64,000 nucleotides of DNA from an uncultured delta proteobacterium (GTDB taxonomy: Bacteria; Desulfobacterota; Binatia; UBA9968), in contig CAWDPO010000043.1 of assembly GCA_963804165.1 (NCBI GenBank), positions 320,001-384,000 of the forward strand. The letters run 5' to 3'. The stretch's first letter is position 1. Each line of letters begins with the position of its first letter. A program made the position numbers and the translations under genes. This document shows positions 32,151 through 47,468 of the stretch, piece after piece. The notes under the pieces were generated by a model that saw only the letters and a program-made list of their open reading frames with translations, was not told the origin of the DNA and did not search any database.

Positions 32151-32235
32151 ATTTAGTCGTCCTGGGGCAATTCTCCTGACTCCGAGGTTCCTTCTGGTTG
32201 TGCGAGGATCAAGCTTTGGAGCGGTAGCTGCTGCT

Positions 32236-34182
32236 TTAAACTTTGGAATTTTTCTGCTGTTCCTCCAGAAGCCGCTGCGCCTCTTCCTCGGACAGTGATT
32301 CCAATTCCTTCAATAGTGTCGTCAAGTCTTGGGCGTCCAAAGTCTTTCCCTGATGTGCCGTGATCATTGATGCCATTTCCGCAACGGTCGGAGATTCAAA
32401 TAGTGATCGCAGTGGTATCTCTAACTGAAACTGATTGACGACTCGCGACACAACCCGGGTCGCTGTCAGAGAGTGACCTCCAAGGTCCAAGAAATCGTCG
32501 TAGATACCAATGGGACGAACATCAAGCAGATCCTCCCAGATCTGGACCAAACTCTTTTCTATCTCATTTCGCGGCGCAGTATATAACGCGTCAAGTTTCG
32601 GTCGCGCACGATCCGGTTTTGGTAAGGCGCGACGATCCAACTTTCCGTTCGTTAGCGGCAGCGATTCCAAAAACACAAAAGTCGACGGGACCATGTAATC
32701 TGGCAGTTTATTCCTGATAAATTTTTTGAGATCGCTCACATTGAGAACGGAGTTTTGACGCGGGATGACATAACCGACCAGATACTCTTCTCCGAGCTCA
32801 CGGTCCCATGCAGCGACTCCGGCGTCTTTGACCTGAGGATGCGCCAACAATGCTCTCTCAATCTCGCCCAGCTCCACACGGTAGCCACGAATCTTCACCA
32901 TGAGATCTTTTCGTCCCAGGTGGATCACAAATCCGTTGGGCAACATCCGGCCGAGATCGCCGGTCGGATAAATTGAATCGGCTGCGCCCTGTGAGTTCCA
33001 GGTTGTCGAGGATGGACGGTGGAACGGCAGATTAAGGTATCGACTGCGGACGGTGATTTCTCCCGTTTGCCCGGGTTGCGCTATATTTCCATCCTCGTCA
33101 ACTATAAGGACTTCTCTTCCAGGCCGGGGATATCCGACGGGAACGCCCTGTTCCGGGAGCTTGAAGTCTTGATCGATCAGAAACGAAGCGAATGTATGGG
33201 TTTCCGTCGCGCCAATAGAAATTTCGAAGGTCGTCGTGGCTGGGAAATGCATCCTATAGAGTGCGATTTCCACTTTGGATACTGGCGCTCCCGACAAATT
33301 AATCAAACGTAATGCGGGAAATTCTATCCTATGCGAGAGCGATTCCACGAACTGGCGAAAGACTACCGGAGTTGAATGAAAGCAAGTGATTTGCTCGTCA
33401 CGCAACCATGACGGGATCCGATTGATTCCTTCCAAGCTAATGTCGAACGGATGAATCGATGCTCCGTTCAGCAAGGACTGATAAAGGTTTATGTGAGACG
33501 AACCAAAAGCAATAGAATGAAATAGGGTGAGCTTGTCGTCTACGCCAATATTATTTATCTGGCCGTGAACAACGCCGTTAAACACGATATTCTTATGAGG
33601 ACAAACGATACCCTTGGGTTTTCCTGTCGATCCCGAAGTGTATAAAAGGCATGCGGGCTCCTCCGCTCCGACCGAAAGTTCGGGGTTCTCAGAGGCGGTT
33701 GAGTGATCGAGTTGGTCGACATTCAGCAATAGCTTCGAATTTCGAATGTGCGGATTGATAAGCCCCTCACCGCGACTATTCGACAGAAGTAAGCTAGCGC
33801 CAGAGTCCTCCAACATTCGAACTTGTCTTTCCTCGGGAAACGATGGGTCTAAACCCAGGTAGAATTTACCTGCCTTCAATACTCCCAAAATTGCTGGAAG
33901 CATGTCGATTCCATGCTCGAATAACAGGGGTATGGGCTCGCTTGAGGCCCCTCGCTTCGCCAAAACGGCGTGAGCGATCCGATTAGCCGCGCGGTTGAGT
34001 TGATCGTAGGTCAGCGCTCGGTCCCTGTCCTTGACTGCCAATCGCTCCGGATACATGTGCACGATCTTCTCAAACCGCGCCGGGATCGATGTCTCAACGT
34101 CCTCCATGGGTCACTCAACGAACATTCCCCATGGAAGAAAGCACTTGGCCCGTATTGATTGTTGGTCATGCGGCAACTTCAT
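32236..34182 (-). CDS. stand-alone NRPS-like adenylation + carrier (A-PCP) protein; in-frame TGA at 34111-34113
   Basis: YTSGSTGKPKG, GATET, TGDLG, KIRGYRVELGEIE, DFLDLGGHSL. The RBS-preceded ATG at 34182 is in frame with ORF 32236..34107. Confidence 0.9.
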
Positions 34183-34483
34183 AGCACTCCCCTACCTTTC
34201 CCCGATTTGCTCTTCCGCGCATCTTTCTCCTGGTCCTGGGAAGGATTGTAGACGAGTGCATTGCTATACGACAAGACTAGAGGTTAGAGGAAGTCTTATG
34301 GTCTTAACAGAGGGGAACTTAATGGCACATGCGGTAAAGAATAGTCCCATAAACATCGGCGCAGTTGGCAGCGAGAACTCGGTTTACATTAAAAAATACA
34401 ATCGCGCACAGAGTGAGCAAGAACTCTAGATTGAAAATTTCGCTCACAACTTTTCGAAGGCAGTTTACCCAGTTTCGACGCAG

Positions 34484-34549
34484 GATTGAACTAAACGACG
34501 CTTCTGACGAATCTCGTGAGATTCGTTTGAAGGAGAATTCAGTTCAATT
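34484..34549. repeat. dif-like site pair A+B
   Basis: GATTGAACTAAA-CGACGC-TTCTGACGAATC tcgtga GATTCGTTTGAA-GGAGAA-TTCAGTTCAATT. Confidence 0.85.
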
Positions 34550-34554
34550 CCATG

Positions 34555-34647
34555 GTTAAACGTTCGCGTTGAGCGGCACGCCCGCACGGGAGCCCATTGG
34601 CGAGCCACCGCCGCTTCCGGCGCGTCCGCTCCAACGCGGGGTTAGCT
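34555..34647 (-). other. integron attC site
   Basis: Minus strand AGCTAAC-cccgcgttggagcggac ... gccgctcaacgcgaac-GTTTAAC, ~20 bp after the stop of 34667..35182. Confidence 0.85.
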
Positions 34648-34666
34648 GGCACCAGAGCGCCATCGC

Positions 34667-35182
34667 CTATTTTGCGCGTCGAAGGACCAAGTGGACGATT
34701 CCTCCGCCGACAGCCGAAACAGGGCTTATGATCTTTAACTTATCACCCGAGATTTCGATGAGCCGAGACTGATCCTCGCCGTTCCAGTTTGGGTAGGTAC
34801 TCCCATCGTAGTGCAGATTTATCTTCCGTTCTTTCTCGTCGATAGAATACCTGCCGAAATAGGCGATGCTTCCTTGTACGATTGCTTTGTTCTCCTCTGC
34901 AGTCCCCGCCATGCGATTGTTTGAAGCAAACTTCGGCAACGTCCCACGTTGAAGCACCAGGATAAAGCGTCCGTTTGCATCGTATACGACCATGCCTTTT
35001 GGATTAGAGCCGAATGGTTCCAATTTCTTTCCGTCTTGGTCTACGTATTGCGCTACTGCCATCCAAGTACCTACGATTTGCTTGCCTAGCGATTGGGCAG
35101 TCGCCGACACACACAAAAATGTGCTTAGCATAGCCAGTGCAACTGACAAGGTTCCGCGCAAACGGCATTGATACGCCTTCAT
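34667..35182 (-). CDS. lipocalin-like domain secreted protein (gene cassette)
   Basis: Signal peptide; IVGTW, FGSNPKG, SIAYFGRY, STYPNWNG. Confidence 0.85.
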   Translation of the reverse strand: MKAYQCRLRGTLSVALAMLSTFLCVSATAQSLGKQIVGTWMAVAQYVDQDGKKLEPFGSNPKGMVVYDANGRFILVLQRGTLPKFASNNRMAGTAEENKAIVQGSIAYFGRYSIDEKERKINLHYDGSTYPNWNGEDQSRLIEISGDKLKIISPVSAVGGGIVHLVLRRAK

Positions 35183-35228
35183 AGTGCCTCCCTGTTGTTA
35201 AGTAACGACCGTATGACGCCTCCGAGCC

Positions 35229-35272
35229 AGCTAACTATTAAGTGAACTGCCGGCTCTTGCGGCGGGTTATCC
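35229..35272 (-). other. truncated attC / cassette 5' core site
   Basis: Minus strand GGATAAC-ccgccgcaagagccg..cacttaata-GTTAGCT; GTTAGCTGGC is the exact complement of GCCAGCTAAC at the cassette 3' end. Confidence 0.7.
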
Positions 35273-35427
35273 GGGAACCCGAAATCTGAGAAGAGCAAAA
35301 TGAACTGAATATCCGTCAACAAGCCGTGCTTTGTCAATGGTTTCACCCGACAAACGCTGCCCGCGGAGCGGTATATCCAGATATCAGCCCGCGGTGTATC
35401 TTGGCGGATCAACCGAAATCGCCGTAG

Positions 35428-35457
35428 GATTGAACTGAACGACGCTTCAATTCGATC
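35428..35457. repeat. dif-like site A
   Basis: GATTGAACTGAA-CGACGC-TTCAATTCGATC. Confidence 0.85.
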
Positions 35458-35503
35458 TCCATTATCCGTCTTAATCAAAGATGAAAAAGTGAAACCAGCG
35501 ACA

Positions 35504-35560
35504 CGCCTGGAGTCCATCCAGGAGAGGGCCGGGCAGCACGGACCGTGGCGCTCTAAGTGA
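35504..35560. repeat. structured ~57-bp motif, copy 1
   Basis: cgCCTGGAgtccaTCCAGGagagggc...gaccgtggcgctc; homologous to 36461-36519. Confidence 0.75.
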
Positions 35561-35700
35561 CACGGAATTGAGTTGCTAGAGAAGCGGCACAAAGACACTT
35601 TGGCTCAATTAGCGCCGTCCACCACGATTGTTTGGACGGTGCAGGGATCTCGTGAGCAAGTCCGTCCGAGATGGTCTGTCGGTAAAGATTCATCCAGACG

Positions 35701-35886
35701 CTATCGCGATGGATCACTCGGACCGCGCGGATTCCCCGCCGATCCTCTGTCAGCAGGAGAGCTTTTCGAAATCTTCTGCAATTCATCAGCCTTCCTTGTT
35801 GGATCAGCATCATTGCCTCGACAGCTCCCAAGAACAACCGTGGCGCATAGTAGGATGGCGACCGCGAGAAGCGTCTGTTTATGCAT
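35701..35886 (-). CDS. small putative lipoprotein
   Basis: MHKQTLLAVAILLCATVVLGS-C lipobox; GGGGAGG RBS upstream. Confidence 0.7.
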   Translation of the reverse strand: MHKQTLLAVAILLCATVVLGSCRGNDADPTRKADELQKISKSSPADRGSAGNPRGPSDPSR

Positions 35887-36138
35887 AATCTGCCTCCCCT
35901 GTCGAATGATCGATATCGTCCAATTCCGAAACTGAGTTGCCGTTGAGAGAGCTGAGGATAAAACGAGCCTCGCAAATTCAGGAGCTCATCTCATGATGCA
36001 GACCTACGCATGAGAAAGCTTGGGACAACTGCGGCAAGCACTAGTTAACGTGACGAGAATTGTCAAGATGCTGAAAAGACATTTTGTCTTGGACGCGCGG
36101 CCTCTGACGGACAACATCCTCACTGAGATGCTGAGAGG

Positions 36139-36168
36139 GATTGAACTTTAACGAATCTAATTTCAATC
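36139..36168. repeat. dif-like site, variant spacer
   Basis: GATTGAACTTTA-ACGAAT-CTAATTTCAATC. Confidence 0.65.
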
Positions 36169-36206
36169 GTTCACAAACGGCGCGTTTACGCCGTAGGGTC
36201 CTGGCC

Positions 36207-36418
36207 ATGAAAAAAGGATATCAAGGCGACGAACTCTGGAGCGCTGTAAATCCGGCGAGCGGTAAACAAGAATTGGTTGACCCCGAGGGCGAATTCATCC
36301 CGGTGAAACAATCATCAAGCTGTACTATTGGAAACGGCTTGACGGCTATGTGACCGTCCCTGGGGATTCGATGTTCAAAGTCGCGGCCGATGGCTACACG
36401 CTCGAAGCTGTTAGATGA
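36207..36418 (+). CDS. small hypothetical protein (probable frameshift near 36305)
   Basis: MKKGYQGDELWSAVNPASGKQELVDPEGEFIP.. continues as IIKLYYWKRLDGYVTVPGDSMFKVAADGYTLEAVR* in another frame. Confidence 0.4.
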
Positions 36419-36460
36419 GACTTAGCACCAGCAGCCAAACCATCAACAAAGACATCGTTG

Positions 36461-36519
36461 CGCCTGAAGTCCATTCAGGAGAGGGCGGTGTGAATCCGAC
36501 CGTGGCGCTCCAAAGTTGA
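36461..36519. repeat. structured ~57-bp motif, copy 2
   Basis: cgCCTGAAgtccaTTCAGGagagggc...gaccgtggcgctc. Confidence 0.75.
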
Positions 36520-36539
36520 TTCAGCGCTAGATACCGAAG

Positions 36540-37520
36540 CTACTGGAACCGTAAGAGACCAGCCTTTGCGCATTCGTCTGCAACGGTCAAATACCGCTTT
36601 ATGCTGTCAGTTCCAACAACATACGGATGCCGATCCTCGGCTTTTCGTTTTGATAACGCTGGCAGCTTCACCTTGCTCCCGTCGTAGATGGTATGGTTGG
36701 AAAGAAGAACATCGGCACCCGCTTTTTCCACAATCTCCCCTAAGCGGCGGGCGGAGTTGCTGTAGGTTTCAAACCAAAAACTATTCGGCTTGCCTCGATA
36801 TTCCGCTCCGCCTCTTAGCCAATTGAACGCAGTACCTCCAACCTCAACAGCGAGGTGACGCTTTCCTCCGTCCTTTACCGGGATAAGAGTTGAGATCGTG
36901 CCTAGCGTATGTCCAGGGGTCTTGTACATCGTCAGTGTCGTGTCGCCAAGCGTGAGCTTCTGTCCGTCAACAGCGACCATATCGCGCTTGGGCTTTGGCC
37001 ATGGCTGCGTATTGCGGCTCATTGCGTCCCAGTCTTCTTCGGCAAGAATGACCCGCGCACCGAAACGATCCTGGAGATACTTTGCTCCACCCGCGTGATC
37101 GATGTGACCATGACTGACAATCACATACTTGATCGAAACCAGATCAAAGCCGAGCTTTTTCAATCCGGCGACGATCTCATCCTCCACTGAGTAGTCAAAT
37201 AAGGCATCCACGATGATGATGCCTTCTGAGGTAGTCACGGCCCAGGCCGAGTGCTCCGCCTGTCCGACAAAGTAAAGATTATCGAAAACTTTTACCGGTT
37301 CGGCGTACCAACTCGAACGATTTGGAGGCCCGGATGGCGGGCGAGCCGTCGTAGCCGGCGTGCACACCGTCTTGAATAAAGCGAGATACTCCTGACCAGC
37401 AGCCTCTCGCGCTTTAGCTACATGAGCATCAGCTGTATCGGAAAACTGAGCAGCAGAGTTGACTGAGACACAATACACCGTAAGACCCAGAGCCAGAACG
37501 ACTATAATCCAAAATCGCAT
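36540..37520 (-). CDS. secreted metallo-beta-lactamase-fold hydrolase, subclass B3-like
   Basis: Signal peptide; PVKVFDNLYFVG, SHGHIDHAGG, TPGHTLG, LSNH. Confidence 0.85.
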   Translation of the reverse strand: MRFWIIVVLALGLTVYCVSVNSAAQFSDTADAHVAKAREAAGQEYLALFKTVCTPATTARPPSGPPNRSSWYAEPVKVFDNLYFVGQAEHSAWAVTTSEGIIIVDALFDYSVEDEIVAGLKKLGFDLVSIKYVIVSHGHIDHAGGAKYLQDRFGARVILAEEDWDAMSRNTQPWPKPKRDMVAVDGQKLTLGDTTLTMYKTPGHTLGTISTLIPVKDGGKRHLAVEVGGTAFNWLRGGAEYRGKPNSFWFETYSNSARRLGEIVEKAGADVLLSNHTIYDGSKVKLPALSKRKAEDRHPYVVGTDSIKRYLTVADECAKAGLLRFQ

Positions 37521-37651
37521 CGGCGTTCTCCTTTTGCTCTCAGACGTGTGAAGAAATCAAATCCTAATGGTTGGGTGTCTGACCAACGAACTCGCGGCTC
37601 CGGACGGTTTACCTTCGTGATGAATGGCTTGTCAATATGTCCACGCCCTCA

Positions 37652-37719
37652 GATTGAACTTAACGACGCCTCGGTTCGATGAGTTCCAAGATTGGCTCGT
37701 AGGAGAATTCAGTTCAATC
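37652..37719. repeat. dif-like site pair A+B
   Basis: GATTGAACTTAA-CGACGC-CTCGGTTCGATG agttccaa GATTGGCTCGTA-GGAGAA-TTCAGTTCAATC. Confidence 0.85.
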
Positions 37720-37774
37720 CTGGTTGTTTTCACGTCTGAAACCGATCTGAAAAATCGCCTCGATAAGAACGAAT

Positions 37775-38773
37775 CTACTTGATCACCCTATCCGCCCGCG
37801 CGAGCACGTTCGGTGGAATCGTCACGCCGATCTGCTTGGCAGTCTTCAGATTAATTATCAGCTCAAACTTCGTCGGTTGTTCGACCGGCAAGTCGGCTGG
37901 CTTCGTTCCCTTGAGAATCTTGTCGACGTACGTGGCAGCGCGACGGAGCAGGTCGGCAAAGTTCGGTCCATAGGCCATGAGTCCCCCAGCCTTCTCCGCA
38001 TGCTCTCTTGTGTCATAAACCAGCGGCAGCCGGTTTTTTGCCGCGAAGTCTGCGATTTGTCTTCCGTAGGTAAGGACCGTTGGGTTTGGCACCATAAGAG
38101 CGCCCGGCCGTTCCCGAATCGCGGCCTCGAAAGCACTCGCTAGCTCTGTGGGATTTCGGACCTCCAGGGATTGAAGGGTAATCGCCAATGCCTGGGCCGC
38201 ACTCTGCACCTCTTTGAATCTGATTCTGTTGGCCGAATTAGCCGGATCCCAGATGAAGGCTACTCGTGTGACGTTCGGCAATATTTCTTTGAGCAGTTCC
38301 AATCGTTTTCCATCTAAGTCAGGGGACAGAGTGGTCAACCCCGTAATATTCCCACCTGGCCGTGCGAAGCTAGCGACGAGTCCGACGGCAACCGGATCTG
38401 CTACCTCTGCCATGACAATGGGGATAGTGCTGGTCGTGTTCTTAACGGCCTGGATCGCTGGTGTAGTTCCCGTAACGATCACGTCAACTTTAAGCTGGAG
38501 CAGCTCGGACGCGAGCACGGGCAACCGATCGCTTTTTCCCTCAGTGTAGCGATACTCAATGATGATGTTCTGTCCCTCAACATAGCCAAGTTCCCGCAGA
38601 CCTTGCCGGAATGCCTCGATACGGGCTGAGTAAGAGGAAGGGGAGCCGGGAACTAGAAAACCTACGAGCGGGACTTTCTTCGGCTGCTGCGCCTCGGCTA
38701 TGACCGCAACAGCAAGCAGCACCACTACAAACAGGATTGATAAGATCCAAGCTTTCCTCATTGCACACATCAT
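37775..38773 (-). CDS. ABC_sub_bind-type substrate-binding protein, paralog 1
   Basis: AEAQQP, GLRELGYVEGQNI, DPVAVGLVASFARPGGNITG, DLPVEQPTKFEL, LARADRVIK. Confidence 0.92.
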   Translation of the reverse strand: MMCAMRKAWILSILFVVVLLAVAVIAEAQQPKKVPLVGFLVPGSPSSYSARIEAFRQGLRELGYVEGQNIIIEYRYTEGKSDRLPVLASELLQLKVDVIVTGTTPAIQAVKNTTSTIPIVMAEVADPVAVGLVASFARPGGNITGLTTLSPDLDGKRLELLKEILPNVTRVAFIWDPANSANRIRFKEVQSAAQALAITLQSLEVRNPTELASAFEAAIRERPGALMVPNPTVLTYGRQIADFAAKNRLPLVYDTREHAEKAGGLMAYGPNFADLLRRAATYVDKILKGTKPADLPVEQPTKFELIINLKTAKQIGVTIPPNVLARADRVIK

Positions 38774-38873
38774 TTGTTATGTATCACGCGGGCGGTAGTA
38801 GAAAAAGGTAAGATTTACGACGGAAGACGACAGGTATTCGTCGAGCGGAAACACAAATTTTTAGCGTAAGTAA

Positions 38874-38939
38874 GATTGAACTGAACGACGCGTCAGACAA
38901 ACCTTGCGAGATTGAGTCGTAGGAGAATTCAGTTCAATC
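38874..38939. repeat. dif-like site pair A+B
   Basis: GATTGAACTGAA-CGACGC-GTCAGACAAACC ttgcga GATTGAGTCGTA-GGAGAA-TTCAGTTCAATC. Confidence 0.85.
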
Positions 38940-38966
38940 CTAGCATCGCCGCTTCTCTTTCTTTGC

Positions 38967-39974
38967 TCACTTGATCACTTTGTCCGCTCTCGCCAGCACA
39001 TTCGGCGGAATCGTCAGGCCGATTTGCTTAGCGGTTTTCAGGTTGACGATGAACTCAAATTTCTTTGGCTGCTCGACGGGAAGATCGGAGGGTTTGGCGC
39101 CCTTAAGGATCTTGTCCACAAGAACGGCGGCGCGTCTGTAGGGTTCGATCCGGTCTGTTCCGTAGGACATGAAGCCGCCGAGCTCCACAAAATCTGCCAG
39201 ACCGGCTATTGCCGGTAGGCGATTTTTTATCGCCAGGCTTATGATTTGGTTTTGATTATTAGCGATCAACCCGCCTCCCGTCACGAAGAGAGCGCCGCTC
39301 CGTGCCTTCACTGCATCTCTGAACCCGCTCTCGATATCGTTGGCGCTGCTTACCGCCATGGAATGAAGTTGTAGACTGAGTTCCTTTGCTGGCGGTTGGC
39401 TTTCTTTCCATACTTGCGTCGAGCCCGGATTCTGCGAATGCCACAGCACTGCAACGCGGGAGAGCTTGGGAATAGTCTCCTTGAGTAACTCCAGCAGTTT
39501 GCCCGCTAACACCCCGCCAATCGAAGTGAAGCCTGTGATATTGCCCCCAGGCGACGCCAAGCTGTCAACCAACCCAAGCGAAACGGGATCGGATACCGTT
39601 CCCAGAAAGACGATGGGAATCGTCCTAGTAGCGTTTTTCGCGGCTCGGGTGTCATTTGCCCCCGGCGTGACGATCACGTCAACCTTGAGCCGAACCAACT
39701 CAGCAGCAAGGGACCGAAGACGGTCGAGATTGTGCTCTGCGTATCGGAACTCGAAAGCTATATTCTTGCCTTCGACATAGCCGAGTTTGAGAAACTCTCG
39801 CCGAAATGATTCGAGCCTAGCCGAAGGGGAACTGGCTCCTCCGAGAATTCCAATTATCGGTATTTTCGCCGGCTGCTGCGCCTCGGCGACGACTGCAGCG
39901 GCGAGCAGGAACACTACAAGCAGGATTGAAAAGACCGGTTTCCTCATTGCACACATGCATTCGCTATGTATCAC
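38967..39974 (-). CDS. ABC_sub_bind-type substrate-binding protein, paralog 2 (start uncertain)
   Basis: Same motifs as paralog 1. Confidence 0.92.
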   Translation of the reverse strand: MIHSECMCAMRKPVFSILLVVFLLAAAVVAEAQQPAKIPIIGILGGASSPSARLESFRREFLKLGYVEGKNIAFEFRYAEHNLDRLRSLAAELVRLKVDVIVTPGANDTRAAKNATRTIPIVFLGTVSDPVSLGLVDSLASPGGNITGFTSIGGVLAGKLLELLKETIPKLSRVAVLWHSQNPGSTQVWKESQPPAKELSLQLHSMAVSSANDIESGFRDAVKARSGALFVTGGGLIANNQNQIISLAIKNRLPAIAGLADFVELGGFMSYGTDRIEPYRRAAVLVDKILKGAKPSDLPVEQPKKFEFIVNLKTAKQIGLTIPPNVLARADKVIK

Positions 39975-40054
39975 GGGGGCGGTAGAAGAGAAAAGTGAGA
40001 TTTACGTAGAAAGGCGGCAAGGATTCGTTGAATAGGAAACCCGAATCAGCCTGA

Positions 40055-40084
40055 GATTGAACTGAACGACGCTTCAGTTCGATC
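40055..40084. repeat. dif-like site A (near-perfect palindrome)
   Basis: GATTGAACTGAA-CGACGC-TTCAGTTCGATC. Confidence 0.85.
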
Positions 40085-40264
40085 AATCTGCTAGGGCTTG
40101 AGTATTTATTAGTAATTGGAGTCAGATGGGCCACCGTAATATAGAAAATCTATATCTTCAGTTTTTGCACGAACCAAACAGCCCCAAGGGTGAGGACCAA
40201 CACGTTTCCGTTTCGGACAGATGAAGGCGGATAGTTCTGGCAAAGTTGTGACAAAGTAAGTCGA

Positions 40265-40645
40265 TTACCCATCAACTTTAGCGATTAATCGTTCTACTTC
40301 CCCGAGAAATTCTTTCAGGTTGAGCGGCTTGGTCTGATAACCGTCGAATCCTTCCGCCAACATCGTTTGTCTGTTGTGTGTCATCGCCGATGCCGTGATG
40401 GCGACAATCGGTATGCGGTTAGTTTTCGGCGCAGCCTTGAGCTGCTTCATCGCCGTGATGCCGTCCATACCAAGGAGCTGGATGTCCATCAGGATCAGAG
40501 CGGGAGTTTTTTCCTCTGCGAGCTTTAGGCCGTCCTCGGCGGTCTCGGTGTCGATAGTTTGATAGCCCTTGACCTGAAGTAAGTCACGAATGAGCTTACG
40601 ATTTTTCTCATTGTCCTCAATGATCAGTATTAGTTCGTTGGCCAT
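40265..40645 (-). CDS. single-domain response regulator (DivK/CheY-like)
   Basis: ILIIEDN, LILMDIQL, AITASA, GFDGYQTKP. Confidence 0.93.
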   Translation of the reverse strand: MANELILIIEDNEKNRKLIRDLLQVKGYQTIDTETAEDGLKLAEEKTPALILMDIQLLGMDGITAMKQLKAAPKTNRIPIVAITASAMTHNRQTMLAEGFDGYQTKPLNLKEFLGEVERLIAKVDG

Positions 40646-43600
40646 CAAATTTCTCTTGGTTGAGCGGCAGAGTAAAAGTGAATGTACTGCCCTTGCCGAC
40701 TGCGCTTTCCACCCAAATCTTCCCGCCATGCAGTTCGACAAACTTCCGAGTGAGGGTTAATCCGAGTCCCGTCCCTTCGCGTTTTTTGGAATAATCGGTG
40801 CCCACCTGACGAAACTCTTCAAAGATCGTCTCTTGGTTTTCCGGGGCGATGCCGCTCCCCGTGTCGCTCACGGAGATCTCTACCGCTCCGTTGGTGAGCG
40901 CGGCATCGACGTCGATACGTCCACCTTCCTCAGTAAACTTGACTGCATTCGATAAGAGATTCAAAAGAATTTGCTTGAACTTTCTCTCGTCACCGATGAC
41001 CTCGCCCAACCGCTCGTCTACGGTATGCCGTAGCATGACACCGTGCCGTGTCGCCCGTTCTCGTATGAGAATCAGCGCGTTGTCGATCGCAGTTGGTATG
41101 TCAAACTTCGTCAGATCCAATTCCATCCGCCCCGCCTCGACTTTGGACAGATCCAGAATATCGTTGATCAGCGAAAGAAGATGGCGCCCTGAGGAGACGA
41201 TATCGTCCATATACTCGTTCTGCTTGTCGTTCAGTTCGCCGAACAGCTTCTCCGAGAGCACTTCCGAGAATCCGATGATAGCGGTCAATGGCGTGCGCAG
41301 CTCGTGGGACATGTTGGCAAGAAATTCTGATTTATGCCGGTTAGCCGTCTCAATCTCACGGCTTTTGTCCTCGATCTCACGAAACAACCGGGCATTTTGG
41401 ATCGCGAGGGCGGACTGAGTCGCAAACGTCTGAAGCAGATTCACAATTTCCGGTTCGAAGTTTCCAGCCTGCTTCCGCCAAACGGTTAGACCTCCCATGA
41501 TTTGCTGTTCGCGGAAAAGCGGGATCGACAGAAGAGATCGATATCCCAGCCGCGTAAGCATCGGCCGCACTCTCGTCCCGGTGTATTCACGCTGATCTAA
41601 GATATCCGGGACCTGGACTGGCGCGCGTGTCGTTACCGCTTGTCCTGTAACACCTTCACCCAAGCGTATCGGCGCTGCCCGAAGCGCATCGACCACTTCT
41701 TCTTCCATCCGGTGGCTCGCTCTCAGATGAAACTCTTGAGTTGATTCATCGTATTCGTAAATGACGCCGCAATCGGTTCCGGAAAGTTGGACGGCGTGAG
41801 CAACAATAGTGGCGAGAACCGTTTCGAGATCCAGAGTGGAGCTGACCGCTTGACCGACTTCGCCTAAGGCTTTGAATTCCCCAACGGATCGAGCCAACTC
41901 GCTTGTCCGCTCTTCGAGTTCTTGAAACAGCCGACGTTCTCGATGGCGATCACCGCTTGGTCGGCGAAGGTTTCGAGCAGCTTGATCTGCGCCGCGGTGA
42001 AGGGGCGTACCTCGGTGCGACGTGCGATCAGTAGCCCCAATGAGTTCCCCTTGCTGGCGAAGGGGAACGCCTAAAAGGTGCGCCAGTTCGCTGACGGAAC
42101 CCAACTATTGGGATAATCGTTCTGCTGCGCGGCAGGTCGGGAATGTGCAGCGTCCCATGCTCGCGCATCCAGCGGATGACTGTCGGCTCATCGATACTGA
42201 TCTCGACCCGCCCAGCTGGGTATGGATATCGGACCAAAATGAGCCCGCGAAACCAGTAGCGTTTCCCTCGCGGAGCCGCAGTCACCACGTCATCAATCCC
42301 ACAAACCCGGGCGGCGCTCTCGACGATGGCGTCGAGCACCGGCTGCACGTCCGTGGGCGAGCGGCTGATGATGCCGAGCACCTCGGCTGGTTGCGGTCTG
42401 ATGCTCCAGCGCTTCGCGCAACTCGCGTTGCGCTCTTGCAGTTCCTTGAAACAGCCGCACGTTCTCGATGGCGATCACGGCTTGAGTCGGCAAAGGTTTC
42501 AAGAAGCTTGATCTGCTCGTCTGTGAAAGGACGAACTTCCAGCCGGCGGATCGTTGATCACTCCGATAGGCACTCCCTCGCGCAAGAGCGGTGCGGCCAA
42601 TATCGTTCGAATGCCTGGCGCTCCGTGAAGCTCACACGCTCAGGAAAATCTTTTGCGACCACTGCGGCTAGATCCTCAATGTGAATCATCCGTCGCTCGA
42701 GCAACCGCAGCGACCAATGACTGACTGCCATCGATGCTGAAATCAACGCAGCTTCCACGGCTGATGGCAGCCGTAATGCGCCGCGTGTCTGAAAGCATCA
42801 TCTCCTTCGACGTAGTCGAATCGTTGCGTCCTCCGCGTCACACACCCGCGCGGCGTTTTCCGCGACCACATCCAGCACCGGATGGATATCCGTCGGCGAG
42901 CTGGCGATGACACCCAGGATCTCAGCTCGTCGCCGTCTTGCTGCTCCAACGATTCCTTGAGTTCTTTGAACAGACCGCACGTTCTCGATGGCGATCACCG
43001 CCTGGTCGGCGAAGGTTTCGAGAAGTTTGATCTGCGCCGGAGTGAAGGGGCGCACCTCGATGCGTCGCGCTTCCAGATTCGTCCAATGAATTCCTCTTGC
43101 TGAACGAAGCGGAGTGGACAAGTAACGTGCGAAACCCGCTGACCAGCACCCAATCTCGGGAAATCGTTCTGCGCAGCACGGACATCGGTGAACGTGGAGC
43201 GTGCCATGCTCGCGTATCCAGCGAAACCATGGCCCATCAATACTGATCGTCGACCCGCCCAGCAGGTATGGATATCGGACCAAAATGAGCCCGGGCGACC
43301 ATACTTTCTCCCTCCCGGAGTCGCAGCATTACATCATCAATTCCGCAAACCCGTGCTGCACTCTCGACGATGGCGTCGAGGACCGGCTGCACGTCGGTCG
43401 GCGAGCGGCTGATGATCCCGAGCACCTCGGACGTCGCGGTCTGATGCTCCAGGGCTTCGCGCAATTCCGCATTGCGCTCGCCGAGCTCTTTGAACAACCG
43501 CACGTTCTCGATGGCGATCACGGCTTGATCCGCGAAGGTCTTCGAGCAGGGCGACCTGCTTGTCGTGCAAACGGTCGTACCTCTGTCCGGCGGATCATGA

Positions 43601-45686
43601 TGGCGCCGACGGGGAATCCCTCTCGCAATAGCGGAACCGCCAGCAACGTCCGAATACGCCAGCCGCTCGTCGGTGCGCCTGACCTCGGCGTAGTCCTCGT
43701 CTAGCACGGCCAGGCTGTCGTGGATGTGGACGGGCTCGCGCTGGAGAATGGCTCGGCCAATCAGCCAGCTGCGATCGATCGGGCGAGTCTCGCCGACCGC
43801 AAGTATTGGGGAGACCACCCCATAGCTTGCTACCTTCCGCAGGTTGTCGCCCTCAACCCGATAAATCTGCGCGTCACTCGAATCACATAATCGGGCCGCA
43901 TTTTCGGCCACAGTGTCGAGTACCGGCTGGATATCGGTCGGCGAGCTAGCGATGACGCCCAGGATCTCACTGGTCGCAGTCTGTTGCTCCAACGCCTCCT
44001 GTGGAGTTCTTGGAACAACCGCACGTTCTCGATGGCGATCACGGATTGGGAAGCGAACGTTTCGAGAAGCTTGATCTGCTTCTCTGTGAACGGGCGAACC
44101 TCTTTACGGCGGATATGAATCGTCCCGATAGGAATTCCCTCGCGCATCAACGGCGTGGAAAGCATTGTCCTGACACCGAGACTTCTAGCGTACGTTGCTG
44201 GAAAGTCATTCTCTGCCAATGCTGCCAAGTCATGAATATGAAGAGTTCGCAGATCTATCACGGTTCGGCCGGGTACGGAGTCGCGATCCATTGGCACGAG
44301 CCGACCCTCACCCCGCCGTGTCGGCAGCGACCCGTAGTTGGCCACCGATAGAAGCTTGTCGCCATCAATGCGATGAATCACGGCGTCGGTTGCGTCGCAC
44401 AGTCGCGCTGCATTCTCCGCCACTATATCCAGCACTGGCTGTACGTCGGTCGGTGAGCTGGCGATCACGCCCAAGATTTCACTGGTAGCCGTCTGCTGTT
44501 CCAACGCCTCTTTAAGTTCTTGGAACAGCCGAACGTTTTCGATAGCAATCACCGCCTGATCAGCGAAAGTCTCCAGCAACTTGATCTGCACGGGGGTGAA
44601 GGGGCGCACCTCAATGCGACGCGCGTTCATCGTTCCAATGAGTTCTCCATGTTGGCGAAGTGGGACGATCAGGAAAGTACGTGACCGAGCGCCGGCTGAG
44701 GAACCCAGTGTGGGAAAGTCGGTTTGCTGCGCGCGGATATCGGGTATATGGAGCGTGCCATGCTCGCGAATCCAGCCAAAATGCACCTCATCAAGACTGA
44801 TTTTCAGCCGGCCAGGGGCTATTGCCACAGGACCAAAATGAGCCCGTGCAACCATCGCGTTCATTTCAATCAGTCGGAGGACCACGTCATCAACCCCACA
44901 AACCCGCGCAGCACTCTCGACGATTGCGTTCAGCACCGGTTGCACATCCGTCGGCGAGCGGCTGATGATACGGAGCACCTCGGACGTCGCAGTCTGATGC
45001 TCCAGAGCCTCGCGAAGTTCCGAATTAGATGATTCCAGCTCAGTGGTCTTTTGTGTGAGTTCTTGAAATAGCCGAGAATTCTCGATCGCGATCACCGCCT
45101 GGTCAGCAAAGATTTCCAATAGTTTGATTTGTCGTTCTGAGAAAGGACGAACTTCCGGACGGCGGATGAGGATCGCTCCGATGGGAACACCCTGTCTAAG
45201 CAACGGTGTTGCGAGTGCAGTCCTATTGCCGTGGCGCTGAGCAAGTTCCCGTGCCCGTGGATACTCTGATACTGGGGTATTGAAGATGTCATGAATATGG
45301 ATCGTTTGTCTGTCCAGCATCGATCGTCCCGCGAGTGTGCCCCGGTCAAGCGGGACATGCTCCTGGCGGGGATTGACAGAAACGGGACCGTAGGATGCGA
45401 TAACCCCCTGCCCGTCGTCATGAAGACGGAGTATTTGCGCGTCGATAGAATCGCACAACCGCGCTGCACGCTCGGCAATCGCGTCGAGTAAAGACTGAAG
45501 ATCCGCTGGTGCCTTGGCAATCATCCGCAGGATGTCGCTGGTGGCTGTCTCCCGTTCGAGTAACTCGTCGCGCTCGCGCCGCAATGACTGAATATTTTCC
45601 GCTTGTTTCGGCTGAGACTTTTTCACCACAGACCGGCGCGGTTTTGCCTTTTTACTTTTAGAGCCCTTTTGGGTCGTGGTTGCCAT
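40617..45686 (-). CDS. cytoplasmic sensor histidine kinase with about 8 GAF domains (frameshifts 41.9-44.0 kb)
   Basis: Repeated [19 protein letters not shown]; [14 protein letters not shown]-box, [16 protein letters not shown]. Confidence 0.92.
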
Positions 45687-45826
45687 AAACGAAGACCGAA
45701 ACGGAGATGCTGGTCGGGGAGAATCTGGAAAAATGTCAGGATTACGCTGCAGCAACACGCTCCCCCAGCGCCTGAAGCTGACTTTTACTTCAGGTGGCTG
45801 GTGGCGTCAACGAAGAAGGTCAAGTT

Positions 45827-45853
45827 TGCGGCTTGGTAGGAGAAGATTCAATC
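45827..45853. repeat. degenerate dif-like site B
   Basis: TGCGGCTTGGTA-GGAGAA-gaTTCAATC (right arm 3 nt short). Confidence 0.45.
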
Positions 45854-45892
45854 CGAAATCCGTCGCTGACGCAAAGACACAAAAATCGCCAG

Positions 45893-45922
45893 GATTGAAC
45901 TGAACGACGCCTCTGGGCAACG
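45893..45922. repeat. dif-like site A at the right boundary of the island
   Basis: GATTGAACTGAA-CGACGC-CTCTGGGCAACG. Confidence 0.85.
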
Positions 45923-46064
45923 CCACTGAGCTCGATTAAATGCAAGCGCGACTGTCAGCGCGCATCTAGGAAGCGTTGCTGACGTAACCGAAAACATCTC
46001 GAACCTAGAAAACGCCCGGCTCTGCTATCAAGTTGACATCATTGACACCGTCAGATAGTCAACG

Positions 46065-47468
46065 ATGGCAAAGCTGAAGGAGCCGGTCGTAACGATGCCC
46101 AAAGACCTCCGCAGTTTCATCGCCCAACTCGAATCCAAATATCCCGAAGAAGTCGCCCGGGTGAGGAAACCGATCTCGCCCCGTTACGAGATCACGGCTT
46201 TGCTAACTCAGTTGGAAAAAGCAAGCGTTTTCCGCTGCTGTTCTGTGAGAACGTCGAAGGCAGCGATGCGCCGGTCGTCATCAATGTGCAAGCGAGCCGA
46301 AAGCTCATGGCGTTGGCACTGGAGTGTAAGCCTGAAGAATTCGCCGCCAAGTTCGCCGAACGCCAGAGTAAACCGATCGCGCCGGTGGAAGTGACCGATG
46401 GGCCGGTCCAGGAAATCGTCAATCTCGGCGATGATGTGGATCTGACAAAAGTGCCGCTGCTCACGCACTACGACGTCAACGCCGCGCCCTTATATCACGG
46501 CGGGCATCGTCGTCGCTGCCGATCCCGACAGCGGCGTCAGAAACACCAGCTATAACCGACTGATGATGGCGCGCAAACGCGAGCTGCGCATTTTCATGGC
46601 CATCGGCCGCCATCTCTGGACGCTGCACAACAAAATGGAGCGGCGCAGCGAGCCGCTCCCCATCGCTATCGTCGTCGGCGTGCATCCATTGTTCTCACTC
46701 GGCGCCCAAGCGTTTACGCCGTCGACGGACGACGAGTACGCCGTCATCGGCGGCATGATGGGCGAAGCCTTGCGCGTGGTGCAAGCGAAGACAGTACCGA
46801 TTTTGGTTCCTGCCGACGCGGAGATGATGATCGAAGGCAAGATCCTGCCCAACGTCCGGCGCGAGGAGGGACCGTTCGGCGAATTCACCGGCCACGCGGT
46901 AGCCAAAGACGATCGCCAGGTCATCGAAGTCACCGCGATCACGCACCGGAAAAACTATATTTTCCAAGACGTCCACGCGGGCTACACCGAGCATAAGCTG
47001 ATGGGCGCAGTGCCGCGCGAAGCCGCGCTGATCAAAGCCGTGCGCCAAACCGTGCCGACGGTGAAAAATGTCTGCATGCCGGTGTCGGGCAACTGCCGCT
47101 TTCATGCCTATATTTCGATTGCCAAGCGCACGCCGGGTCAGGCCAAGAACGCCATCTGCGCCGCCTTCGCCTCCGACATGCTGCTGAAGCACGTGATCAT
47201 CGTCGACGACGACATCGACGTCTTCGATGAAGAACAGGTGCTCTGGGCGGTATCGAACCGCTTTCAAGCCGATCAAGGCTTGGTCGTAATTGCCAATGCG
47301 CAAGGAAGCGAGCTGGATCCCTCCGCCGGCCCCGGCGGCGTCAACGCCAAGATGGGCCTGGATGCGACCAAACCGCTCACAGGTTTTGCTCCTGAGCTGA
47401 GAGTGCCCGAAGAAGTAATGAGGAAGATTCGACTCGAAGATTTCTTACCGAAATTCGCTAAAAAGTAG
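46065..47468 (+). CDS. UbiD-family decarboxylase (frameshifted)
   Basis: KDLRSFI, VDLTKVP, EEGPFGEFTG, VDDDIDVFD, GLDATKP. Confidence 0.92.

Follow-up and report, generated by a model that had tools for sequence, protein, structure and literature searches.

The 64,000-nucleotide window analysed here (contig C43:320001-384000 of assembly G000, which comprises 7.5 Mb in 46 contigs) carries an array of short palindromic elements that bracket single-gene modules with a fixed polarity. Judging from sequence comparison, and with roughly an even chance of being right, we propose that these elements are core sites of a tyrosine recombinase bounding mobile gene modules; the elements resemble both the attC sites of integrons and the dif modules of Acinetobacter and belong to neither family. 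What is directly observed comprises the anatomy of the elements, their clustering and polarity, the diversity of their cargo, the fact that congeners lack the island, and the placement of the ends of duplicated blocks and of insertion sequences at the junctions. A family of recombination sites bounding gene modules is the simplest account of this anatomy, polarity and clustering together with the strain-specific islands and the junction positions. An earlier note on this DNA had described the array as a set of dif-like sites, shuffled by a Xer-type recombinase acting in trans; its observation is partly confirmed and its interpretation partly supported.

Anatomy of the composite element

Exact plus-strand matches in the window to the class A motif GATTGAACTNAACGACGC number six against 0.02 expected (starts at 34484, 35428, 37652, 38874, 40055 and 45893), while the class B motif GGAGAATTCAGTTCAATY has three exact matches against 0 expected (34532, 37702 and 38922), and the 30-bp class B sites thus start at 34520, 37690 and 38910. 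The six class A and three class B sites reported earlier are therefore all exact and far above chance, and the core-site anatomy given for them, inverted 12-bp arms flanking a 6-bp spacer that is nearly invariant per class, holds as well. The view of A and B as separate, independent dif-like sites is not supported, since an adjacent A and B (B starting 36-38 bp after A) are the two halves of one hairpin-capable composite element of 64-70 bp. Examination of its order reveals arm1 GATTGAACTGAA, the spacer CGACGC, a variable arm2, a loop of 5-10 nt, arm3, the spacer GGAGAA and arm4 TTCAGTTCAATC, such that each half reads as a 12-bp arm, a 6-bp spacer and a 12-bp arm, with CGACGC as the left and GGAGAA as the right spacer. 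The outer arms, arm1 and arm4, form a conserved inverted repeat; arm2 and arm3, the inner ones, are variable yet mutually complementary.

The composites of the window (34484-34549, 37652-37719 and 38874-38939) are palindromes of 66-68 bp that score 66-76 bits with a covariance model, here called R1, built from 63 distinct full copies. Sites that stand alone are short forms of 30 bp. At 35428 and 40055 what had been taken for a variable arm is actually a near-consensus arm, which makes them true 12-6-12 palindromes of the form arm-CGACGC-arm (32 bits each). The copies at 36139 and 45893 are weak by the same model (16.7 and 16.3 bits, E ~0.07-0.1), and a degenerate copy previously placed at 45827 gives no match to it at E<=1.

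The complementarity of the inner arms enables either strand to adopt a hairpin whose 6x6 centre is unpaired: arm1 would pair with arm4 and arm2 with arm3, the two spacers forming the centre. With this structure supplied by hand, 79.4% of cells pair over 27 pairs in the 63 full copies, and sliding the partners lowers pairing to 19-49%. A count of cells in which both partners have changed gives 106; shuffles give 69.6 +/- 6.5, and none of 500 reaches 106. Folded as single-stranded DNA, the element at 34484..34549 forms an outer stem, an internal loop and an inner stem (z -3.4 on the plus and -4.4 on the minus strand). The proposed hairpin is the minimum-free-energy fold for two of the three full copies in the window (z -3.4 to -4.4), the third being weak. 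Fold energies of the two strands differ by at most 0.9 kcal/mol, which gives no choice of strand, and G.T pairs of the inner stem are enriched on the CGACGC-first strand. The flanks of the element lengthen the palindrome by 2-3 nt with no direct repeat there, target duplications not having been searched for systematically.

Copies, cargo and the strain-specific island

Motif scans recover 49 copies on 16 contigs of G000, 33 full and 16 short, and the set obtained with R1 is similar. The sites had been described as confined to the island, which is correct within the window (they occur only at 34.4-46 kb) and incorrect for the genome, where this array is one of many and not unique to the locus. 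Clustering is pronounced, with 35 of the 49 copies having another copy less than 5 kb away, where a random distribution would give 6%. In G000 both spacers are present in every one of the 33 arm pairs with a spacing of 64-70 bp, and the short copies are of two kinds, those with the spacer CGACGC and those with GGAGAA. Among the 63 distinct full copies CGACGC occurs in 53 and GGAGAA in 58, counts that are inflated in that copies were partly found via arm1 plus CGACGC; their inner parts are distinct in 62 of the 63.

Beyond this genome the element is present in 9 of 18 genomes of the same genus, with 1-20 copies each, in 1 of 12 other genomes of the same order, and in none of 149 genomes sampled from elsewhere in the phylum. 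An exact 18-mer scan gave at least 88 stretches, where ~35 chance matches are expected at that degeneracy and collection size, and lone matches, for example in Pseudomonas or Enterobacter, were disregarded. Some of the matching records are titled Pyrinomonadaceae, Blastocatellia or Verrucomicrobiia. We rejected spread across phyla as their explanation, as 0 of 80 other genomes in the order of one such record carry the element and the records are short contigs of metagenome-assembled genomes (MAGs) from soil; they are probably the result of mis-binning.

In G000, 72 of the 89 open reading frames (ORFs) flanking elements run opposite to the CGACGC-first strand, as do 71 of 91 in other records (~80%), and the element often starts 7-30 nt past a stop codon. 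The order B-gene-A described earlier for the lipocalin-like gene and both PF04392 binding-protein genes (34667-35182, 37775-38773 and 38967-39974) is borne out, as is the orientation of the conserved arms toward the genes, the variable arms facing the 5-10 nt loop; the sites thus bracket single-gene modules with fixed polarity. As had been stated, no recombinase is encoded in the window. Its cargo comprises the lipocalin-like gene, a metallo-beta-lactamase (MBL)-fold gene and the two PF04392 genes, followed by a signalling block free of sites. In the congener G018, genes for MgtC, SnoaL-like, TENA, methyltransferase and serpin proteins are among the cargo. The features of the island are, along the window:

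32155..46094, no strand: strain-specific island, from congener comparison
34484..34549, + strand: full composite element (A 34484 plus B 34520); R1 75.7 bits, E 1e-18
34667..35182, - strand: lipocalin-like cargo gene, 171 aa; PF13924, E 9e-23
35428..35457, + strand: short C-type site, arm-CGACGC-arm, 12-6-12; R1 32.3 bits, E 3e-6
35553..35975, - strand: cargo ORF (140 aa) without a Pfam family, possibly not a genuine gene
36139..36168, + strand: degenerate variant of the short site; R1 16.7 bits, E 0.07
36540..37520, - strand: MBL-fold cargo gene, 326 aa; PF00753, E 8e-19
37652..37719, + strand: full composite element (A 37652 plus B 37690); R1 66.3 bits; weak fold, z -1.3/-1.5
37775..38773, - strand: PF04392 ABC-type substrate-binding protein paralogue, 332 aa; E 3e-52
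38874..38939, + strand: full composite element (A 38874 plus B 38910); R1 69.3 bits; fold z -4.2/-3.5
38967..39974, - strand: second PF04392 paralogue, 335 aa; E 3e-49
40055..40084, + strand: short C-type site, perfect 12-6-12 palindrome; R1 32.3 bits; hairpin -8.2 kcal/mol, z -3.8
40617..45758, - strand: signalling block without internal sites; no R1 match between 40087 and 45890
40617-42104, - strand: GAF histidine kinase, in the signalling block
42798-43283, - strand: GAF fragment, in the signalling block
43830-45758, - strand: GAF/DUF3369 protein, in the signalling block
45827..45850, + strand: doubtful B-like remnant, GGAGAA then a shortened arm, from sequence reading; no R1 match at E<=1
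45893..45945, + strand: terminal half element at the right edge of the island, arm1 and CGACGC intact, remainder degenerate; R1 16.3 bits, E 0.1; no stable fold, z -0.07

The PF04392 (ABC_sub_bind) family deserves separate consideration, given that G000 encodes 123 paralogues (ORFs of at least 150 aa) and that these genes are over-represented beside elements. Most of the 123 are found in element-free tandem arrays on one strand, separated by 0-120 nt, which shows that the element does not belong to the family as such; sites of expansion include C6:670-33415, C38:1746-30179, C37:128-150 kb and C16:155-173 kb. The binding-protein genes are preceded by a conserved leader of ~70-100 nt, placed between element and start codon (38774-38873 and 39975-40054 in the window). 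It is also seen ahead of many element-linked PF04392 genes in other parts of the genome and may be a promoter or a signal in the 5' untranslated region. Within the first PF04392 gene of the window, 37805-38698 is found at >=99% identity in Logan contigs from four soil metagenomes of four studies, and in two of those runs pieces of the MBL-fold gene (~36.9-37.3 kb) are only ~90% alike. Elsewhere in the genome a 1.1-kb block with a 331-aa ORF without a Pfam family is shared by C5:6798-7914 and C31:9431-10544 (98.8% identical), the C5 copy cutting a PF04392 gene into two fragments, and may be another small mobile element.

These surroundings bear on a reading in which the element is a cis-acting expression signal involving no DNA rearrangement, be it an operator for a dimeric regulator, a hairpin that stabilises RNA or terminates its synthesis, or a leader element of PF04392 genes. 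Such a signal would explain the intergenic, co-oriented position close behind stop codons, the frequent neighbourhood of PF04392 genes and their conserved leader, and the stability of the hairpins (z down to -4.4). However, a T-run after the hairpin is absent on both strands in the 70-nt flanks of 33 copies, and 30-48 kb of the window gives no relevant Rfam match at E<=1, only sucC at 23.5 bits against a gathering score of 50. The large operon-like PF04392 arrays on C6 and C38 are without the element, and the functions of the cargo are unrelated. Furthermore, junctions at the edge between arm and spacer, and short forms that lack exactly one half, are unexpected of a pure expression signal, and we regard this reading as very unlikely.

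The island itself is strain-specific. In G018 the amidohydrolase gene and ubiD are ~110 bp apart, as opposed to 13.9 kb in G000, and the proteins flanking the island are 93-94% identical between the two genomes; this absence from the closest congener counts in support of the earlier interpretation. G014 retains only the adenylation-carrier protein gene of the island, in three further congeners the gap at the locus is 1.2-3.2 kb, and no elements occur at this locus in the five congeners examined. The adenylation-carrier gene at the left edge (32236-34107) is a stand-alone gene for a 623-aa protein with AMP-binding and PP-binding domains, which has 78% nucleotide identity in G014 and is missing in G018. 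In public reads, the best run holds <=27% of the sampled words of 34300-40300 of the window, all matches being Logan contigs of soil metagenomes; stretches that these reads leave uncovered carry no evidential weight. Apparent joints in these reads (35445>37702 and alike) were rejected as excision products, as they hold 11-30 other letters between the joined positions and belong to other copies of the family.

Junctions at the arm-spacer edge and candidate recombinases

Four duplicated blocks have ends that can be compared with the elements. Block (a), C23:255309-256829, equals C21:11469-9954 at 99.4%; identity begins at arm1 of one element and ends exactly past arm1 of the next, where one copy continues with CGACGC and the other with GGAGAA. 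Block (b), C21:6241-7718, equals C23:248455-246976 at 98.4%, with its right end at an arm plus TTCTCC. Block (c), C5:21532-22722, equals C8:29433-28239 at 96.7%, with its left end within arm1 of a short site. Block (d) is a 914-bp TENA module that recurs in two arrays of G018 on two long contigs (98.4% identical); its left end is the outer edge of a short site and its right end an arm followed by TTCTCC, beyond which the interiors differ. Thus six of the eight ends lie at an element and two elsewhere. In five of the six element ends the position is inside a GATTGAACTGAA-type arm or at its 3' edge; the sixth is the left end of block (d).

A second set of junctions comes from insertion sequences (ISs). 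Wherever a tyrosine recombinase gene occurs near an array in G000, it is the leading gene of an IS with two genes, an integrase followed by an IS91-family Y2 HUH transposase (NF033538 430.6 bits, cut-off 125, with further matches to PF04986 and PF14319), and ~ten IS91-family copies are present in the genome. One subfamily is inserted in elements, with two copies on C23 (C23:251687-254215 and C23:259578-262106), one each on C18 and C30, and others in record L032 and congener G014; a placement between spacer and arm is also seen in L126. At the left junction an element spacer precedes the IS in 5/5 assessable cases (GGAGAA twice; GCGTCG, GCGTC and GCGTCA once each), and at the right junction TTCAGTTCAATC comes next in 5/5, whichever the spacer. 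Hence the IS entered at the spacer-arm edge of either half, which is the same position as that of the block ends. A second subfamily (C5, C37, C10, C41, G015 and G012) has different flanks and is not inserted in elements. Read by eye, the IS ends resemble the element at only ~6-7/12 positions. The block ends and IS insertions at arm-spacer junctions count as support for the interpretation offered earlier.

The IS-borne integrase is a short Xer/IntI-like protein that scores 181 bits with a XerA/integron-integrase model and 156 bits with an integron-integrase model, both below cut-off, and lacks positions 182-240 of the latter; its closest solved relatives are a XerC-like protein and IntI4. A search of the whole genome with TIGR02249 gave 30 matches, the best at 104.9 bits against a cut-off of 265, covering positions 4-181 and 237-315 only. 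In the portions available, a preprint (10.1101/542381) places IS91-borne recombinases, without the IntI insertion, as the closest relatives of IntI, and IS91 is not mentioned in the available passages of its published version (PMC8138268). As to the recombinase postulated to act in trans, then, the only recombinases physically linked to elements are IntI/Xer-like integrases on IS91-family ISs, and these are absent from the congener with 20 elements.

IS91 and the palindromic form of the element also lead to a reading as a selfish or structural repeat, either a repetitive extragenic palindrome (REP/REPIN) or a miniature inverted-repeat transposable element (MITE), spread on DNA hairpins by an HUH enzyme (a Y1 transposase, or the Y2 of the IS91-family ISs), with the look of a cassette being a by-product of intergenic insertion in accessory islands. 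We consider this unlikely. A lineage-restricted intergenic hairpin repeat with ~50 copies, found in half of the 18 congeners and in none of the 149 phylum genomes, fits such an origin, as do 18 Y1_Tnp matches and the ~ten IS91-family copies in G000. The target of IS91 is the tetranucleotide (G/A)TTC, beside which the IS junctions can also be read as insertions, and block ends at GCGTC/GTTC would fit initiation or termination of rolling-circle replication. However, the Y1 genes (18 PF01797 matches) lie >=1.7 kb from elements and 14 of the 18 are on element-free contigs; the copies are clustered rather than dispersed; and ends and spacers are fixed whereas the interior is variable in 62 of the 63 full copies, the opposite of what a recent MITE would show. 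The two halves are not mirror images, their spacers being different, unlike a REPIN doublet; the orientation of the element follows that of the genes in ~80%; and the IS ends match the element at no more than ~6-7 of 12 positions. The Y1_Tnp genes, of the IS200/RAYT type, occur at 18 places including C15:112517-112879, C12:56332-56658 and C34:158490-158819, most of the ORFs having ~200-325 aa, and in records L064 and L076 a Y1-like ORF lies ~270 bp from a short site.

The host's own Xer system is another potential source of recombinase. A XerD is encoded at C15:102514-103380 (357 bits, above cut-off), and a XerC-like gene at C10:164004-164892 is matched in two pieces and is possibly frameshifted. 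A candidate chromosomal dif was located by a motif search at C15:118,080-118,111, at the peak of cumulative GC skew and 15 kb from xerD. The contig of the window has negative skew in 42 of 43 bins and hence no GC-skew switch. This candidate for the host's true dif lies elsewhere, has another spacer and matches the element arm at only 6/11 positions of its XerD-side arm, and in this respect the earlier interpretation is not supported.

These genes allow a reading in which the 30-bp sites are dif-like and used by host XerC/XerD as in the Acinetobacter dif modules, the genes being 'D-type' modules between conserved arms and the 6-8 bp loops minimal modules between variable arms. The presence of XerD and the XerC-like gene would suit an enzyme acting in trans, congeners that lack the IS-borne integrase still have elements, the spacers are near-invariant per class and the conserved arms face the genes. 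Conversely, besides the mismatch with the candidate dif, the short sites use one arm sequence twice, in inverted orientation, and there is thus no distinction between a XerC-type and a XerD-type arm. The arms have 12 bp instead of 11, the inner arms show a covariation that independent sites would have no need of, and the junctions of arm1 with GGAGAA and the IS insertions at either spacer indicate that spacer identity is not required. On balance this reading appears unlikely to us.

Proposed mechanism and relation to known systems

In light of the above observations, we propose that the elements would be the boundaries of mobile single-gene modules, where a Xer/IntI-like recombinase supplied in trans would cut directly 3' of the GATTGAACTGAA arm on either strand, such that a cut at the arm edge would lead to exchange of whatever lies beyond. 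The island of the window would be an array of this kind, lacking its own recombinase and placed between the adenylation-carrier protein gene and ubiD. That a recombinase acts at the elements is an inference, as would be any statement of its identity or of whether its substrate is double-stranded or folded single-stranded DNA. Candidates for the enzyme would be the IS-borne integrase, the host XerCD or another protein. The invariance of the spacers suggests classical double-strand sites; the complementary inner arms and the spacer-blind junctions suggest folded single-strand sites with exchange of one strand, as at attC or the CTX site.

Several points weigh against this proposal. The covariation test is inflated by kinship among the copies, and its counts lean to a structure that we ourselves supplied; RNAalifold returned no consensus structure for the 63-copy alignment; and the strand asymmetry is contradictory, for in 23 of 63 copies the strand other than that favoured by the G.T pairs is preferred at one position of the outer stem. 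Of the two block ends away from elements, that on the left of (b) lies inside a PF04392 gene and that on the right of (c) 72 bp beyond a short site. As arms and spacers are identical between copies, breakpoints can be placed no finer than ~6-18 bp, and this resolution leaves room for recombination or template switching at short identical palindromes. The integrase-bearing IS occurs in only 3 of the 9 element-bearing congeners (E<=1e-50) and in 1 of the 9 element-free ones, namely G005, which makes the association weak (the counts of 9 of 18 for the element and 4 of 18 for the integrase include G005). G018, with 20 elements, is without such an integrase, and of its 12 PF00589 matches one lies in an array, a 205-aa stump. 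G000 is a MAG of 81% completeness and 5% contamination, and some small contigs may therefore be strain variants or assembly artefacts. Finally, the support is comparative throughout, with no recombination event observed directly and at most 27% of the sampled words of 34300-40300 present in any public run. A REP-like repeat, a pure expression signal and accidental rearrangement at palindromes are all weakened as rivals of the proposed recombination sites, yet each retains some probability.

Comparison with integrons reveals likeness to attC. The element shares with it an imperfect palindrome of ~60-70 bp in which the outer boxes are conserved, the central spacer is unpaired and the tip beyond a second stem is variable, and the location just downstream of single, co-oriented, diverse accessory ORFs in arrays. 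Its arrays without a neighbouring integrase recall clusters of attC sites lacking integron-integrases (CALIN). Insertion sequences of the IS1111-attC group target attC, much as the IS described above targets the element. To judge from the available portion of the preprint cited above, the element-linked recombinases also belong to an IntI-like subgroup. There are also differences: IntI was not found, the TIGR02249 cut-off is not reached and the IntI-specific segment is missing, and an attI/Pc platform beside an integrase was not found in the window or the G018 arrays. The outer core consensus of attC is RYYYAAC / GTTRRRY; the arms of the element hold ATTGAAC and GTTCAAT, each agreeing at 6/7 positions, with mismatched fourth positions that are complementary to each other. 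Moreover, the outer boxes of the element are of 12 bp and its 6-nt spacers are conserved in sequence, its junctions are at the arm-spacer edge on either strand as opposed to inside the box on one strand, and it has 30-bp short derivatives.

With the dif modules of Acinetobacter the element shares the arrangement of accessory modules between inversely oriented sites of arm, 6-bp spacer and arm, of which the more conserved arm faces the module, with no dedicated recombinase beside the modules; those sites too are targets of insertion sequences, of the IS1202 family, according to the accessible part of one study (PMC10132070). The dif modules are described, in the accessible part of another (PMC13141974), as unique to Acinetobacter and tied to Rep_3/OrfX plasmids, whereas the arrays of the element are chromosomal, in Binatia, on contigs of up to 1.97 Mb. 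The element differs further in its 12-6-12 sites with identical arms as against 11-6-11 with distinct XerC and XerD arms, in being two sites fused head to head with complementary inner arms, and in its weak likeness to the candidate host dif (6/11 positions).

Phage CTX has a folded single-stranded attachment site, formed when two inverted dif-like halves base-pair in the same strand and leave the centre unpaired. The paired half sites and unpaired centre of the element would similarly permit exchange of one strand without homology of the spacers. The CTX site occurs once per phage genome and is used by the host XerCD at dif, whereas the element has ~50 chromosomal copies that bound genes, none of them at dif. 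With REP/REPIN sequences it has in common that it is a lineage-specific, intergenic, hairpin-capable palindrome present as singlets and doublets; it differs from REP/REPIN-RAYT systems in having no flanking Y1 gene in G000, and in being clustered, polar, an asymmetric doublet and variable in its interior with fixed ends. The element thus falls outside what defines integrons and dif modules, yet resembles both in its proposed working. A non-exhaustive literature search, with supplements outside its scope, found no title or abstract start describing such an element, and a full-text search for the motif gave one unrelated primer match only.

Tentatively, and with less confidence than in the recombination sites as such, we consider it possible that the elements represent a third bacterial cassette system beside integrons and the Acinetobacter dif modules, in which exchange takes place at the arm-spacer edge by an IntI/Xer-like recombinase without the IntI insertion. 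Each cassette would then have as its boundary a double core site whose two spacers are fixed and unlike each other, and modules would thereby keep their polarity on excision, insertion or swap. The integrase of the IS91 subgroup would steer the IS into elements and may drive the movement of cassettes, which would account for its presence in that subgroup.

If the recombination sites are real, gene-cassette platforms would not be confined to integrons and one group of Acinetobacter plasmids, and a soil lineage with no known cultured members would have its own route to assemble accessory genes. The unexplained integrase of one IS91 subgroup would likewise gain a testable job. Should the element instead be a REP-like repeat or an expression signal, it would still be a well-defined marker of the lineage. 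As it is short and sharply defined, the question of recombination can be settled at the bench.

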